Part shown: one piece after another, positions 8,246 to 25,592 of the stretch
Numbering within the stretch: position 1 is the first letter of the stretch
How the letters are laid out: every line of letters starts with the position of its first letter
NCBI GenBank assembly: GCA_008369845.1
Contig: MRSU01011640.1
Location: 1-33,063 of the forward strand
Direction of reading: 5' to 3'
DNA: 33,063 nt
Source of the DNA: Trichomonas gallinae
Lineage: Eukaryota
Translations under genes and position numbers: made by a program
Notes under the pieces: model-generated
The model's input: only the letters and a program-made list of their open reading frames with translations
Database searches by the model: none
What the model was told of the DNA's origin: nothing

Positions 8246-9037
8246 TAATACTCTACTTAGAAATTTTGGAAATTAATTGCAAAGGCAAAATTTGATTAAT
8301 GGTTAATGCCATAGGCTATATTCCCTTAAAATATGTATATTATGGATACTGTTTGACTATATCATGATTATTAGATATAAGGAAATTATGTCTAGCAAAT
8401 TATGAAGCAGTAATGATGAATTAAATTTCACTACAGTGAGAATAGTGAAAATCAAATGAGGAAACTATGAAGTTGCTGATGAATCACTTATCAAAATTTC
8501 AAGATGTCTAAATCTTCTACTTGTTGAATGAATAAGAAGCGGTACTCAGTGGAAGACTGCCAACGTTAAATGCTCTAAGTTCAATTAAAGTTAGAGAGAA
8601 GTTTCTCAACCCTTGAGTCTTTCAAGCTAATGAAGATTTGAGTCAGTTTCCTTCCTTTGAGCTTTGTTGAGTTTTGAGTTTGTTGTATTTTTGGTTGCGA
8701 TAGAAGATCGCGGTCGCTGTCGACCGTGGTCAAGAATTTTTATTTTGCGCGTCTTTTTGCTCTGTGAGTTAGTTTGTTTTTGCTTTCTTTTTTTCCGCGC
8801 TGTTTTTTTTTTCTTTCAAAGATGAGTTATTCTTTTCAAGGAATAATCACATCTTTTCTTTTTGTTTGTGAAGGAGCAACTTCACAGAAACTGGCTATAG
8901 ACCAGAGTGTTAATTTATTCAAGTTAAAAAGATCATGTGCCGCAACCTTTATGCTGCGACGGATCTTTTTAATTTTGACATAAAACTAAGTTAACTGAAC
9001 CCTGAATAAAAAAATAACAAAACAATATATAAAAAAA

Positions 9038-14506: not shown

Positions 14507-15103
14507 TTGTCACGGAAGAAAGTTAAGAAGCCTGATAAGAAGGATTTTTTACAAATATTTGGGAACTTTAGTACCAAACCCTTCGATTGGGACCACTTAA
14601 ACCAAAATTCGCGACATGATATAATACAAATGTGCATTAAACTTAGAATACCTGTTAATATGGAGACAATGAGCAAACTAGATCTTATAAATGCTCTCAG
14701 ACAATACCCGAAAATGATTACTACGTCCAATTCTGTTTCCCCTTTCATGAATTCAGATCGGCTACACAAATATGAGTACCCACTGCTGCCAACATCCAGC
14801 AAAAACACACTCAATAATAATAAAAAGAAAACTGCAGCTGAGGAAAAAACCACAGAAGTTGAAGATTCAAATCCGACAAAATCAGATGAATCGTCAGACA
14901 AGAATGATGAGGAGCCAATTACCAAAAAACAAAGAATTACATCAAAAATTGCGTCAATATTTAGGCAATTTCTTCATTATTCCGGAGTTGTGTTGACATT
15001 TACGAAAAATCTAATCATACAGGAATGGGTGGCGATCTTATTTTACATATATATAATAGTAGTATTTGCTATATTAGTTTATTTTGTTATTGCTCCAGAA
15101 TAA
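14507..15103 (+). CDS. Hypothetical protein with a HeH/LEM-like helical motif and a C-terminal transmembrane helix (start uncertain)
   Basis: Open frame 14471-15103; FDWDHL...SRHDIIQMCIKLRIPV....SKLDLINAL resembles HeH/LEM/SAP motifs; hydrophobic WVAILFYIYIIVVFAILVYFVI tail; first in-frame ATG only at 14630. Confidence 0.6.
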   Translation: MSRKKVKKPDKKDFLQIFGNFSTKPFDWDHLNQNSRHDIIQMCIKLRIPVNMETMSKLDLINALRQYPKMITTSNSVSPFMNSDRLHKYEYPLLPTSSKNTLNNNKKKTAAEEKTTEVEDSNPTKSDESSDKNDEEPITKKQRITSKIASIFRQFLHYSGVVLTFTKNLIIQEWVAILFYIYIIVVFAILVYFVIAPE

Positions 15104-15646
15104 TTATTCAAGAATTATTTTGGCTATTTTCCATTGCATGTTATGTTATTTATATAAATGTTTGTTTATATTACGCATATATCATAATCAATTTCTAAGT
15201 AGTTCAAACAATTATTTTTCTTCAAATCCGTTTTATTAATACAGACAAATCTACACTTAATGGTGTAATATATTCATAGAATGGAACAACTTGACATTTC
15301 AGTTTTCCTGATTTACGTTTAACTTTTACAAAATATTTTCAAAATTAAAGAAAAAGAATGAAATATATAATGAAATAATATATAATTGAGTTCTTTTGAG
15401 CTTAGTGGCAAGTTTGCCATTGATTTTATTATGATTTCAAAGAAGGACTCAGCAAATTCTGCATTTTAAAAATAGTTCATATATATTTTGCGCGAAATTA
15501 TATTTTTCTACTAGGAAATGCTTTGTAATACCTATAGTGCTTCACATGATGATGACAAGCAAGTCGTAAAAAATATTTGACATTTTATTTTTTACACGTC
15601 AGATTTATATCTACACGTCAAAAATAAAAAAATGCCCGACGATAAA

Positions 15647-15665
15647 AACGGTTACTCGGCCATTA
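15647..15665 (+). promoter_or_regulatory. M3-like (Myb-type) core promoter element followed by a weak Inr-like CCATT, upstream of the intron
   Basis: AACGGTTA at 15647-15654 fits the T. vaginalis M3 consensus RRCSGTTD as I recall it; CCATT at 15660-15664; a duplicated TACACGTCA lies upstream at 15593 and 15612. Confidence 0.4.
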
Positions 15666-15682
15666 TTATACAAGTAGAAGCA

Positions 15683-15814
15683 GTATGTATACGCATATTT
15701 TTTCTTGATTAACCCGCAATGACGATAAAAATCCGTGTTGCTGCACACTGATGATAATGACGCCTGAGCGAAAGTAATCAAGAAAAAAAAATTAATTTTC
15801 AAACTAACACACAG
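15683..15814 (+). other. Spliceosomal intron (132 nt), trichomonad conserved type
   Basis: 5' splice site GTATGT at 15683-15688; exact 12-nt fused branch point/3' splice site ACTAACACACAG at 15803-15814, the T. vaginalis intron consensus. Confidence 0.88.
15715..15770 (+). ncRNA. Intron-encoded box C/D snoRNA, U18/snR18-like guide
   Basis: Terminal stem CGC (15715-17)/GCG (15768-70); box C ATGACGA 15719-25; guide TCCGTGTT 15732-39; D'-like CTGC 15741-44; C' CTGATGA 15748-54; box D CTGA 15764-67; enclosed by a 14-bp external stem. Confidence 0.75.
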
Positions 15815-16316
15815 AGTTTTCTTCTTATCTAATAATTTGCCAAATACAAGGCACTAACCTCATCCCAAGTGCTATAGCCACTCTTCTCATTAAAATGTAA
15901 CTATTCAATTTTATTTTTTTGATAATTTTACATGATATCAGTTGTACCATAGCTTCATTGTCATATAGTTCGATTCCACAAAGGGAAAAAGATCGAAAAC
16001 CTACATTTTTCAGTTAATTTGAAAATTGAATATTATTTGTTTTCATAGACTACTTGTGTGTAGATTAATGTAACATGCACTTATAAAATCTCATTTAGAA
16101 ATCTCATTTTGCTTATGACAATAAAATAGCTTCTGTGACTGGTTTTTATCATATGATGAATCATCGATGTGAAGGAAAATCTAAGCCATCATTCATATAT
16201 TAACAGTATATCAGGAATTCCATCAATATGGCTTAATATTCAATCTTAAAATGCATGAACTAATATGACTGCACCATAATCTTTCAAAAATTTCATTTTT
16301 CATGGTGCAATCATTT

Positions 16317-16785
16317 CTAAGCAGTATTGATGAAAATACCCTTTGCATTGACATCTATTCCACGAACTGAAAGATGAAGTTTAATTGTTACAAGGTGACA
16401 TTTTTTTAAAGCACAAATCAATGGGGTATTGTAGTATGTGCTTTTTTCGTTTATATCAATTCCATGAACTGTGAAAAGGGATTTGACAAGATATTCAAGA
16501 TATTTTGTAGCATGATTCAAAGCAGTTCTGGTGTTGTTCGACAACTGTGAGAACGAGTTTGACAACTCCGCGATGACTTTCTTCGAAAGCACAAATCCAA
16601 ACCGTAAAGTTCCATTCGTTTCTTGTGATAAAATCTCTTCTTGGAATAATGTAAAGAATATTTTGACAACTTAATGATGACCTCTTTTTGAAGCATAAAA
16701 CAAAGCTGTATATCTTGTAGAATATTTTGCGTTGATATCTATTTCAGGAATTGTGAGAAGTAGTATAACAGATATATGATCCACG
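16317..16785 (-). pseudogene. Ankyrin-repeat protein pseudogene
   Basis: Reads LLLTIPEIDINAKYSTRYTALFYASKRGHH*VVKIF...FTVWICAFEESHRGVVKLVL, then after a frameshift TALNHA...VKSLFTVHGIDINEK..YNTPLICA...HL..IKL.LSVRGIDVNAK; in-frame stop at 16671-16673; no start codon. Confidence 0.85.
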
Positions 16786-16822
16786 CATGACAATTGTGCA
16801 GTATTGTCAGAGAAAGGTTTAC

Positions 16823-18301
16823 ATGTCAAATCTTAAATACCCCCTGATTAATTTAGTCAGACCCACAGATTTCGTTTTGTACGCAACAAGGGTAAAAGTT
16901 TCTGATGCAGGAATCGTTGATATCAAATATAGCGCACTCGGTGATCTTATATTGATCGCCTCGGGTGATTGCTCGATATTTATATATAAAATTGAGGAAA
17001 ATAAATTCATATATCAAACAAATCTTCCATCTAAAATAAATTCAGCGATATTTGTGTCTGGACTAGATTCAAAGATTGTAGTTGCTTGCCAAAATGGAGT
17101 CGTTTACACTATCGATGTTCTCAAAAATACTACAGAACCAGCATTTTCACATCCTAATAATAGTTCAGCGACATATATCACTGGTTCACCTCATTTCCTT
17201 TATATTGTTGGTTTTCAAGACGGCTCAATCGGAATAAGAAGTAATTTAAAAACAAAAACACATTTTTTACGCTCATATAGTTACGCAATCACATCCATAG
17301 CTATAGAAGAAGAAGAGACGCATTTTGCTGCATCATCAGTTGATGGCATAGTTCGATATTACAACTTATTGCAACCAAATGTTACTAATTCCAAATATCA
17401 ATGCGTAAATTCGTCATTTGTTTGTGTCCAGCCAATCGCACACATTGCTTTTATGCCAACATCGTCTCAGTTGCTTGTTGCAAGTTTGGATGAATTTATT
17501 CGAGTTTTCAAAATGCCATTTTTCGATGGTGCTGTGATTTCGCAGATGTTTCAAACCGGTTCTATGCTATCGCATTTTGATTATGTGAAACATTTGCCGA
17601 TAACATCAAAAGGTCCACAATTCATATTCATCCAAGGACAACAAGGCAGTATTTACCTTCTAGATATCATATTTGGCGATATTCTCAGCAAATTCGATAT
17701 TTTTGACCATTCAGGAGTTGCAATCTGCTGTAATCCGAAATGTTTACAAATTGCTGCTGGTGGTGGACCTGGTGATGGCACACTAGCAATAATTACGCTA
17801 CCAGACGAAGCTCTTGCGAAGAGAATGGAAAATGCAAAAACATTAGTCCTAAGAGTTTATAATTCTGCTTCCACCATCGGCAAACAGTTACAAGTTCAAC
17901 AATATACCCAAAGAGCCAATGAATTAGTCTATCCACTATATAATGCACAAACAGAAGTTGAACAACCTGCTGCAAATCCTAACATACCATATCCATATGC
18001 TACAGAAGAGGCTCACATCAGACAGAAAATTTCTCATTCGATTGAGCAAATTAATCAAAATTTTCCAGAAAAACAGCCTAATGATCAAAGTAAAAACGAG
18101 ACACATAATACTGAAACTCCATCAATTCCAGTAACTGCAGAAAAGACTTCATCTATTCCAGATAAAAAACAAAGTAAAGAAAAGGACAAAGGTCAAGCTC
18201 CTAAAGCTGAAGATGAGGAGCATATCCCCGAACCAAAAATTATCGGTGTTATTAAGCCCAAAAAGAGAGGTAGACCACCAAAGCCAAAGAATAATAATTA
18301 A
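16823..18301 (+). CDS. WD40 beta-propeller protein (WDR5/Swd3-like pattern) with a C-terminal AT-hook
   Basis: IKYS..G..I.IASGDCSIFIY, AASSVDGIVRYY, LVASLDEFIRVF, IAAGGGPGDGTL; disordered tail ending KKRGRPPKPK. The start may be 16787 or 16823. Confidence 0.8.
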   Translation: MSNLKYPLINLVRPTDFVLYATRVKVSDAGIVDIKYSALGDLILIASGDCSIFIYKIEENKFIYQTNLPSKINSAIFVSGLDSKIVVACQNGVVYTIDVLKNTTEPAFSHPNNSSATYITGSPHFLYIVGFQDGSIGIRSNLKTKTHFLRSYSYAITSIAIEEEETHFAASSVDGIVRYYNLLQPNVTNSKYQCVNSSFVCVQPIAHIAFMPTSSQLLVASLDEFIRVFKMPFFDGAVISQMFQTGSMLSHFDYVKHLPITSKGPQFIFIQGQQGSIYLLDIIFGDILSKFDIFDHSGVAICCNPKCLQIAAGGGPGDGTLAIITLPDEALAKRMENAKTLVLRVYNSASTIGKQLQVQQYTQRANELVYPLYNAQTEVEQPAANPNIPYPYATEEAHIRQKISHSIEQINQNFPEKQPNDQSKNETHNTETPSIPVTAEKTSSIPDKKQSKEKDKGQAPKAEDEEHIPEPKIIGVIKPKKRGRPPKPKNNN

Positions 18302-21017: not shown

Positions 21018-22139
21018 ACATTTAATATGCCCTTATTTGATATAATTCTGTATAATTTTTATTTCGACTTCTGACTGTAGGCTAGTATAATCTTATTTTT
21101 ATCACATCTTAACTTATTATCAGGTTTCCCTTAACATTAGAATGTAAATACGCCTGTGTTATTAGATTCTACAATCTGGGCCAATTTCGCGCAAACGATA
21201 AGAATTTTAACCTTCAAATTTATTACGAAATCCACTCGTAGTTAAACATTATATTGTTTAGGCAACATATAATCGAATAACACAATGCATAAAATCAGAT
21301 TTTTATCACAGAAATGATTTCATTGATTATACATTGTCATTATCATTATGTGATGAAAATGTTATCAATATAAAAAGAGCTCAGAATAAACTTAAATATA
21401 CTAAAGTTTGACGCTGATAAATCACATAAGTCTCAGACAGAGATTACACAATTGAATTGTGATGTAAAAAAGTCTACTAGTGAGCTTAAAGAGACCGAAA
21501 AGACTCATGAGGCGAAGAATATCAAAATATAAGAAGAAATATAATAAGGAAGGAATTTTCAAAGAATAAATACGAAATCAATCGGATTTACTGACTTTTC
21601 AGCACATTGATGAGCTTGCTGAGTAGATGTTGCATGATGTTATTAATTCCATATTTAAGGACAAAGGATTGGTTAAGTTATGTTTCCAATTCAAAGAGTA
21701 TGACCAAAGGAGCTAGTTTCAATCTAGAAAAAATGGAAAATAATCAGTCATCACTAGACAGATCAATTGAAGTCAAGAAATTAAAGAAATCAATCACTCT
21801 AGACAAAATATCGCATTAATATGAATGCGAGCAAGTTCAGAAATTAGTCAAAAATACTTTTTTTAGGTGAAAGATAGATATTGAAGTAAACCAGGACAAA
21901 ATATAGTAAATCATCAAATAGAATAAGCAAAGTTTTAGATTTTTATAAATTAAAAGGCTTAAACTATAATTTTTATTTTGATATTAAATTTTTGAAGACC
22001 AAATGCTATGATATTTAATATGCTTATTCTTCAAGTGATGAAGTTTTATAATTCACAAGAAATAATTAATATTGTTGGCTGGAAAATGAGAAAAACGAAA
22101 ATAGATTTTAAGTGCCACTTTTTATCATATTTTTTAAAA

Positions 22140-22709
22140 ATGCGAAGTCTTCACATTAAAATCGTTGGCATGAAAAATCATCCATGCAGACGTTCACCGA
22201 TGCCGTTCATTTATGCAGGGGTCAAACTTTCAGGCATAGGAAGCTTTCAATTCACATCAAAATCAAATGCTTTGCCTCCATTCTGGGATAAAAACTTCGA
22301 TTTCGTCTTCCAGGATAACCAGGTAAATACTATCGACTTTATTGTTGCAGAATCCCGTTTAATGATGGTTCATGAAGAATTAGGAAGCATTTCAATCCCA
22401 TTGAAGTGGATTCCTTATGATGTTGTCGTAGCTGAATGGTTACCAGTAACGTCAACTAGAAAAATGATCGATCCAATATATATGCTTGTTCTCTTTCACT
22501 ATTGCGATCCTACTGTTCCTGCATTCTCACAAGAGAGAGTATCTTTTGCAGCAACCCCACCATGGACGCAAATTCCAGTCACAGATGAAGATTTAGAAAT
22601 AGTTTGGCAGCCAGGTGAAGCATTCGTTCCTCCTGTTGCATCTACACTTAATGAAGAACAAATACATCAGCAAGCCATCCAGCGTGCAATGTATGCAACA
22701 TTCCAATAA
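22140..22709 (+). CDS. C2 domain-containing protein
   Basis: ATG 22140 after Inr TCATATTTT; LHIKIV, P.WDKNFDF, IDFIV.E..LM..HEELGSISIPL.W and VV.EWLP are C2 strand patterns. Confidence 0.8.
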   Translation: MRSLHIKIVGMKNHPCRRSPMPFIYAGVKLSGIGSFQFTSKSNALPPFWDKNFDFVFQDNQVNTIDFIVAESRLMMVHEELGSISIPLKWIPYDVVVAEWLPVTSTRKMIDPIYMLVLFHYCDPTVPAFSQERVSFAATPPWTQIPVTDEDLEIVWQPGEAFVPPVASTLNEEQIHQQAIQRAMYATFQ

Positions 22710-24962: not shown

Positions 24963-25565
24963 TTACTCTGTGAATGTCTCGAGGAACTTGACAGCAGCAG
25001 CACCGAGTTGCTTGTTAGCCTTCTCGATGGCAGCGGCCTTCTTCTGGAGCTGAGCCTTCTTGGCTTCGAAGTACTTAGCGGATTCAGCCTTACGCTTCTC
25101 TTCGAGATCAGCAACGACCTTGCCATACTTCCAGCCCATTGTTGTGGAGAGTTTGCCAAGCTTTGTTGTTGGGCGATCTGTGTGGATGGAAACGCAGCGG
25201 AGAGCATGTGGAACAACGACGCGCTTGAAGTTGACGTACTTAGCTGGGACACCCTCAAAGCACTTGAGGTTGCCGAAAGCCTCAGCACCACGGTGTGTCT
25301 TGTATGGGAGCATTCCGCGGACAGCACGGGCGAAGATCTCGTGTGGAGCACGCTGGTGGAATGGACCGTCACGTGGGTTGGAGTTTGTTGTCTTGTTAAG
25401 GAAGCGCTCGTACTCGTGGACGACGAACTTATGCTGGCCATTTAACTCGATCTCCTCGCAGCGGACAACGACGACCTTACGGCCCTTGAGAAGCTGCTTG
25501 GCGACGGCAGCGGCAAGGCGGCCCTGGACGTGGCCCTTGGCATCAATAACAACTGGGGCAGACAT
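24963..25565 (-). CDS. RPL13A: 60S ribosomal protein L13a (uL13)
   Basis: VVIDAKGH..GRLAA.VAKQLL.G.KVVVVRCE, NP.DGPFH.RAP..IF.RAVRGMLP.KT.RG; true start ATG 25565; highly biased codons. Confidence 0.97.
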   Translation of the reverse strand: MSAPVVIDAKGHVQGRLAAAVAKQLLKGRKVVVVRCEEIELNGQHKFVVHEYERFLNKTTNSNPRDGPFHQRAPHEIFARAVRGMLPYKTHRGAEAFGNLKCFEGVPAKYVNFKRVVVPHALRCVSIHTDRPTTKLGKLSTTMGWKYGKVVADLEEKRKAESAKYFEAKKAQLQKKAAAIEKANKQLGAAAVKFLETFTE

Positions 25566-25568
25566 TCT

Positions 25569-25592
25569 AAAGGAAAGGCCAAACGTCACTTT
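25569..25592 (-). promoter_or_regulatory. M2 (AAAGTGAC) plus tandem M5 (CCTTT) core promoter of RPL13A
   Basis: The minus strand reads AAAAGTGACGTTTGGCCTTTCCTTTAGAATG. M5 CCTTT is described as an Inr alternative in T. vaginalis, notably for ribosomal protein genes. Confidence 0.7.

Follow-up and report, generated by a model that had tools for sequence, protein, structure and literature searches.

Host genes that combine low-coding exons with intronic C/D guides are known from animals (UHG/SNHG and GAS5) and from Neurospora crassa, and the hosts described in these organisms are multi-intron or polycistronic (PMC2780460). The preliminary description of the locus studied here had treated dedicated snoRNA hosts as mainly animal, a view that the UHG-like hosts of Neurospora correct (PMC2780460). 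The C/D snoRNA U18 (snR18/SNORD18, Rfam RF00093) is intron-encoded in yeast (PMC3553958, PMC8053091), where it guides Am649 and Cm650 (PMC3553958).

T. vaginalis has ~60 active introns in coding genes (PMC12316389), and its known snoRNAs are short C/D guides for rRNA (PMC2817412, PMC3228867). Simoes-Barbosa 2008 (PMC2588526) mentioned T. vaginalis 'intronic snoRNAs' as unpublished data, so the idea of intronic snoRNAs in this organism is not wholly new. The word 'intron' is absent from the available text of Chen 2009 (PMC2817412), Chen 2011 (PMC3228867) called intronic snoRNAs 'highly unlikely', and the available text of PMC12316389 contains only a general remark that 5' UTR introns can hold snoRNAs. 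The term 'snoRNA' appears 0 times in the body text of PMC13548475 and PMC6679479 and in the supplements of PMC12316389. In a full-text literature search of partial coverage, snoRNA-hosting orphan introns of trichomonads appeared to be undescribed, and an earlier report is possible.

Here, we analyzed a window of 33,063 nt from Trichomonas gallinae (the whole of the DNA stretch studied). It contains a candidate snoRNA-bearing intron whose predicted host, like UHG-type hosts, combines low-coding exons with a putative intronic C/D guide, whose release would likewise depend on splicing. Unlike UHG-type hosts, the trichomonad hosts considered here each appear to have one intron of 93-137 nt, little longer than the single guide RNA of ~50 nt inside it, and a first exon of ~20 nt, and they sit in genomes with only ~60-80 other introns.

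Setting of the locus

The snoRNA-intron feature (15632..15832) is intergenic, as no ORF of more than 80 codons (counted stop to stop) overlaps it in the window. This agrees with the earlier statement that the region holds no real gene, the nearest genes lying at 15103 and 16787. The neighboring features are as follows.

Ending at 15103, + strand: upstream neighbor gene, a 157-codon ORF (ORF list)
Starting at 16787, + strand: downstream neighbor, a WD40 gene (ORF list)
16317-16832, - strand: ankyrin-repeat remnant, interrupted at 16671-73 by an in-frame stop

The two same-strand neighbors lie ~580 and ~970 nt from the host, with the minus-strand ankyrin remnant in between. Many short contigs of run X1 fall on this remnant, as for a multi-copy family. 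In an expression check, the contigs of one run fell on neighboring genes and repeats and none on the locus, and two further runs placed no contigs, a result that is uninformative either way.

The window also encodes uL13 (24963-25565, minus strand), which matched PDB 5xy3_O across all 200 residues (E 1.5e-119); the best clearly different PDB entry gave E 3.9e-53. PDB 5XY3 is the T. vaginalis ribosome. Judged by this uL13 match, the window is trichomonad DNA.

A type A intron motif with exact ends

The intron motif comprises the following features.

15683..15814, + strand: type A spliceosomal intron motif, 132 nt (consensus in PMC12316389)
15683..15689, + strand: 5' splice site GTATGTA, exact type A match
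15803..15814, + strand: branch point, its A at 15807, fused with the 3' splice site as ACTAACACACAG; exact type A match
15699..15711, + strand: 5' arm of a 13-bp outer stem, pairing with 15775-15787
15775..15787, + strand: 3' arm of the outer stem, pairing with 15699-15711

Measured against the consensus of Callejas-Hernandez et al. 2025 (PMC12316389), the motif has the GYAYGY-type 5' end and the RCTAACACAYAG 3' end of type A introns. No other branch-point/3' splice-site match in the window is an exact copy of the 12-mer ACTAACACACAG. By chance, ~0.005 copies of the 12-mer would be expected in the window; the corresponding figures are ~0.065 for a 5' site no more than 200 nt away and ~3e-4 for the pair. 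The perfect trichomonad intron first noticed at 15683-15814 was thus borne out at both ends.

The outer stem reduces the single-stranded span between the splice sites to 43 nt (fold z -2.7), and both sizes fall within the type A ranges (132 nt against 50-196 nt; 43 nt against 25-44 nt). Motifs, length and stem-shortened span are therefore shared with ordinary trichomonad type A introns. The candidate type A intron has exact ends in the window, and splicing of the locus is predicted from them. Since long trichomonad introns normally fold into such stems (Hudson 2019, PMC6679479), the outer stem alone is uninformative about a snoRNA.

Two isolated sequences elsewhere in the window resemble parts of this design. 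A sequence that differs from the type A 3' motif at one base, ACTAACTCACAG, occurs at 8762-8773 (- strand), with no GTAYGT within 200 nt upstream of it, and a C-box-like run, ATGATGATGA, occurs at 15546-15555, with no CTGA in the 190 nt downstream.

A box C/D layout inside the intron

The interior of the intron contains the following elements, whose positions were assigned in the present analysis from an alignment to SNORD18; the preliminary description had given none.

15715..15770, + strand: predicted box C/D snoRNA, with a 3-bp terminal stem (15715-17 / 15768-70)
15719..15725, + strand: box C, ATGACGA, one change from consensus
15741..15744, + strand: box D' variant CTGC, placed by alignment with D' of SNORD18; also present in row 6 of the S3 Table (T. 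vaginalis)
15748..15754, + strand: box C', CTGATGA (SNORD18 alignment)
15764..15767, + strand: box D, CTGA (SNORD18 alignment)

The layout has box C near the 5' end, box D near the 3' end, a terminal stem, and internal D' and C' boxes. From C to D it spans 49 nt, and it is closed by the 3-bp inner and the 13-bp outer stems. The C/D RNAs of Chen 2009 lack C' boxes and terminal stems, whereas the window has both (PMC2817412). A first assignment of the boxes, with D' at 15748, was rejected: the guide that it implied matched the rRNA contig introduced below over no more than 10 nt, and the CTGA at that position belongs to C'.

An Rfam scan of the whole window returned nothing at the locus. When a 111-nt stretch was submitted, SNORD18 (RF00093) was the top family by bits, at 17.9 bits and E 0.26, and C/D families accounted for nine of the 12 listed weak matches. 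The score lies under the gathering threshold for SNORD18 membership (17.9 vs 41 bits). In the SNORD18 alignment, the guide, D', C' and D are all in register. The window RNA resembles SNORD18 in the place of its D' guide, its rRNA target and its fifth-base position, and differs from it in a C-to-D distance of 49 nt (against a 71-position model), in its CTGC D' box and in its host, which is predicted to be non-coding and is a protein gene for U18. On this alignment, the predicted snoRNA is U18-like, a probable orthologue judged by its target, and outside Rfam SNORD18 membership.

The predicted guide and its rRNA target

The target was read on L003, a parabasalid-type rDNA contig from another parabasalid than T. 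gallinae. L003 was found with a trichomonad primer from PMC11210186, whose three matches included one rDNA; the other two, L001 and L002, are chance primer matches without rRNA and were rejected as rDNA. Positions 1-3840 of L003 comprise the SSU end, 5.8S and the whole LSU, and the contig lies in a bacterial MAG, evidently as contamination. Two guide segments were considered.

15730..15739, + strand: D' guide AATCCGTGTT, 10/10 Watson-Crick pairs to L003 LSU 1394-1403, the U18 site
15755..15763, + strand: possible D guide, 8 Watson-Crick pairs and 1 G-U to L003 2415-2423; weak

The D' guide provides an antisense element of at least 10 nt before a D/D' box (10/10 on the relative's rRNA, L003), and it faces the LSU helix 25.1 site, as in SNORD18. 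Opposite the fifth base before D' stands the A of L003 1397, which is also the position chosen by the SNORD18 consensus. From this we infer that A1397 of L003 corresponds base for base to yeast A649. Relative to SNORD18, guide and target each differ at two positions: the CC of the Rfam LSU consensus is UU in L003, and the GG of the SNORD18 consensus is AA in the guide. In this alignment, guide and target share two compensating changes. The snoRNA is therefore predicted, as the likely function, to guide 2'-O-methylation at the LSU U18 site. Other guide matches on L003 (9-10 nt, with 1-3 G-U pairs) were weaker and were set aside. The window guide is absent from both published lists (T. vaginalis and T. 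stableri) and from the supplements of PMC12316389, PMC13548475, PMC6260720 and PMC6679479.

Conceivably, the locus is a type A intron, ordinary or decayed, that folds into the usual hairpin and in which boxes and rRNA match arose by chance. Such stems are usual in long introns, the Rfam score is below its cut-off, and the guide match alone is weak: a match of at least 10 nt was found anywhere in 310/1000 shuffles, and a box-anchored one in 63/1000 (p ~0.06), so that p for the guide alone ranges over ~0.06-0.3. The joint layout argues otherwise. Boxes, stem and a guide of at least 9 nt occurred together in 5/3000 shuffles of the intron core and in 1/584 real 113-nt tiles of the window, with criteria set after the locus had been seen, and the guide hits a conserved site of methylation, where two changes compensate each other. 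Together with the comparison of intron classes given below and the lack of a host gene, this makes an origin by chance highly implausible, and we hold that the intron interior is very probably a C/D snoRNA of U18 type.

Orphan introns of the same kind in T. vaginalis and T. stableri

The locus matches a group that PMC12316389 terms 'inactive', namely intron motifs without splicing evidence (S3 Table). Twenty T. vaginalis rows are of type A; rows 27 and 31 were dropped (nonstandard ends, gene overlap), which left 18. These orphan rows represent 15 distinct sequences of 100-135 nt, none of them flagged as near a gene. Read by eye, all 18 contained C-like, D'-like and D-like boxes and a short stem. 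Weaker boxes were seen in row 7 (the weakest D), rows 1 and 6 (CAGA), and rows 2, 3 and 14 (divergent C). By contrast, a C box followed by a D box was found in 0/22 coding-gene type A introns, also by eye (Hudson Additional file 6). The window differs from those 22 in the same manner, having no coding host and carrying C/D boxes and an rRNA guide inside. This difference (18/18 vs 0/22) also speaks against the chance reading of the window.

The orphans were also compared with L003. Perfect antisense matches of 10-12 nt in the C-to-D' interval were found, by eye, in 11 of 14 distinct T. vaginalis sequences. As the chance per intron is ~0.2-0.3, this number is not explained by chance. Rows 3 and 18 showed a 10-nt pairing with one G-U, and row 14 had no match on L003. 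Row 11 was left out of the 14; it has no L003 match, and its target probably lies in the part of the SSU that this contig lacks. Guide matches were confirmed by search for T. vaginalis rows 4, 8/13 and 15 and for T. stableri row 4 (0-1/200 shuffles each), these four having been picked after L003 had been read.

In T. stableri, 13 of the 17 type A rows are orthologous to T. vaginalis rows, with boxes and guides kept. Seven of the 17 overlap annotated genes and eight are close to one; this makes the 'no host gene' reading weaker in this species. Because each list lacks loci found in the other, both appear incomplete.

Three further observations concern these lists. T. vaginalis rows 1-18 and T. 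stableri rows 4-20 resemble box C/D snoRNA genes, with ~18 distinct guides between them. The guide of T. vaginalis row 6 matches L003 117-128 at 12/12 positions (by eye), in the SSU helix 34 region, and its variant D' and C' boxes are the same as those of the window. This SSU region holds a conserved acetyl-C that is snR4-guided in yeast. The active Lsm3 and Prp18 UTR introns, at 100-102 nt, have the same length as snoRNA-bearing introns (PMC12316389 S2 Table).

Intergenic C/D introns in metagenomes

A metagenome scan for a 5' site, a D box and a 3' site gave four matches. Since the pattern demanded a D box, the scan yields no unbiased C/D fraction. Three of the four (L005, L006 and L007) are intergenic introns of 93-104 nt with full C/D layouts. 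The fourth, L004, lacks a C box and was put down to chance. L007 matched SNORD31 at 35.1 bits (E 7.9e-5, cut-off 40), and among the six matches of its neighbor gene the sole named relative was Tritrichomonas musculus (49%). The guides of L005 and L006 are those of T. vaginalis rows 16 and 18; intron motif and shared guides were the sole basis for placing these two loci in the parabasalids. The L006 guide was not significant on L003 (611/1000 shuffles).

At these other loci, guides are conserved among T. vaginalis, T. stableri, L005 and L006, in a comparison that covered the guides. No orthologue of the window locus was found, and viral contigs gave 0 matches to the primer or the intron pattern.

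The predicted host gene

The predicted host has the following parts.

15647..15654, + strand: upstream element AACGGTTA, M3-like, with a GGTTA core common to L005
15658..15669, + strand: 12-mer GGCCATTATTAT, common to the non-orthologous snoRNA-intron locus L005; contains CCATT
15660-64, + strand: Inr-type CCATT, predicted transcription start 15662
15662..15682, + strand: predicted exon 1, 21 nt, without ATG, placed by the Inr position
15815..15907, + strand: predicted exon 2, with TAAA at 15891-94 and then a T-rich tract; estimated 3' end
15632..15832, + strand: spliced micro-ORF of 22 codons, ATG at 15632, stop at 15830-32

The Inr consensus is HCAHW (PMC7370421), and UAAA is found 10-30 nt before the transcript end (PMC13548475). 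The window and L005, which carry different guides, both have GGTTA, a gap of 3-4 nt and then GGCCATTATTAT. This shared pattern, picked after both loci had been seen, occurred in 0/100 shuffles. The Inr-type CCATT stands at -23 from the 5' splice site in the window and at -25 in L005, and L006 has TCATT at -25. Inr-like 5-mers are frequent (537/734 45-nt tiles of the window), and for this reason we count only the long shared motif as promoter evidence. The candidate promoter and ends of the host's own are read from two sequence features, the motif common to L005 and the TAAA signal. Two copies of ACACGTCA lie at 15594-15601 and 15613-15620, 40-70 nt upstream of the predicted start, and the pair is a possible upstream element.

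The element AACGGTTA was found at 15647-54, where it had been reported, and is putatively M3-like. The preliminary description had considered that this element might set a start near 15662. A start at 15662 with a 21-nt first exon is indeed predicted, with better support from the Inr-type CCATT than from the M3-like element.

If transcription begins at 15662, the ATG at 15632 falls outside the transcript and exon 1 measures 21 nt. The 22-codon spliced micro-ORF exists as first described, and it is the longest that the exons offer; they contain no credible ORF. With its ATG upstream of the predicted start, it is probably untranslated. The sole ATG of exon 2 directly precedes a stop. The TAAA and the T-rich tract suggest a spliced RNA of ~115 nt, with no ORF past Met-stop from the predicted start.

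A coding host, in which the micro-ORF is translated or the intron belongs to the long UTR of a neighboring gene, draws on several facts. An ATG lies 51 nt before the intron in the window and 47 nt before it in L005, and in both the shared motif reads Ala-Ile-Ile-Ile. UTR introns are common in T. vaginalis (PMC12316389), L005 has close same-strand genes (58 nt upstream and 92 nt downstream), and several T. stableri rows overlap annotated genes. However, the shared motif is identical even at synonymous positions, and the frame of GGTTA differs between the loci, as would be the case for a DNA element. In the window, the same-strand neighbors are distant, L006 has a divergent gene upstream, and L007 has a convergent gene 29 nt downstream. 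Neighbors aside, neither L006 nor L007 has an ORF of more than 20 codons starting in the 30 nt ahead of the intron or in the 150 nt that follow it. We therefore regard a coding or UTR host as decidedly unlikely.

Proposed route of snoRNA release

We are fairly confident that the locus is a single-intron, non-coding mini-host whose C/D snoRNA would be released by full splicing. The core of the preliminary description, an intron outside coding sequence that carries a C/D snoRNA in a non-coding or micro-ORF host, is thereby upheld by sequence and comparative support (18/18 vs 0/22). Pol II would start at the Inr near 15662 and produce a 21-nt first exon. The spliceosome would then excise the 132-nt intron, with the outer stem setting the splice sites 43 nt apart, and the lariat would be debranched and trimmed to a protein-protected C/D core of ~55 nt. 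A fibrillarin RNP would methylate the A facing the fifth base before D', at the SNORD18/U18 position (yeast Am649). The spliced exons, ~115 nt in total, would be a short-lived by-product.

The snoRNA may instead be real without full splicing being its route, if the motifs served first-step cleavage only, if the guide stayed in a stable lariat, or if it were cut from an unspliced precursor that retains relic intron ends. Short reads gave no assembled spliced product for the 18 T. vaginalis loci, which are labeled 'No RNAseq evidence' (14/18) or 'Not assembled, low coverage' (4/18). Of 49 motif-supported loci in a 2026 long-read study, 25 were shortlisted and 17 validated, and by eye none of the orphan coordinates is among the 17 validated new introns. 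In addition, the distance from the D box to the branch A is 18-39 nt in four loci. Such a distance is below the vertebrate optimum.

Against this, the 7-nt 5' site and the 12-nt 3' site (terminal AG included) are exact across different guides and distant parabasalids. Exact splice motifs amid drifting spacer DNA argue against relics, which would decay. A 21-nt first exon and a ~115-nt product would also be difficult to keep in standard libraries or to map. Together with rapid decay, these small sizes could explain why such introns are termed inactive in poly(A) and long-read surveys. We consider a route other than full splicing improbable.

Implications of the proposed mini-host design

Many C/D guides are probably produced genome-wide from the same design as the window locus, with one guide per mini-gene. 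We lean towards the broader view that parabasalids, from Trichomonas to distant relatives, keep genome-wide one-intron, one-guide mini-genes that serve rRNA methylation guides only. If this is true, about one-third of the long introns of T. vaginalis (18 orphan vs 39 active type A) exist for guides, and ribosome maturation in a very intron-poor eukaryote depends on the spliceosome. Splicing-based snoRNA production would then be an ancient trait that has survived near-total intron loss. Such loci may also be why spliceosome and debranching enzyme are retained, as the preliminary description proposed, although the ~60 active coding-gene introns of T. vaginalis need splicing as well. The question bears on spliceosome retention in intron-poor lineages and, as Metamonada are distant from animals and fungi, on the age of intron-encoded snoRNAs and of non-coding hosts. 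The ~18 distinct guides and their predicted rRNA methylation sites are now listed for a human parasite and its bird relatives, and the uniform, simple architecture makes dependence on splicing directly testable by transfection.

Other features of the window

A C/D-like layout at 22372-22435 (+ strand) was rejected as a snoRNA; it lies inside the ORF 22008-22709 without an intron motif and is probably due to chance. Directly before the uL13 ATG, at 25573-25580 (- strand), lies GGCCTTT (m5 element). It differs at one base from the GGCCATT of the snoRNA host, and both may belong to related types of promoter.
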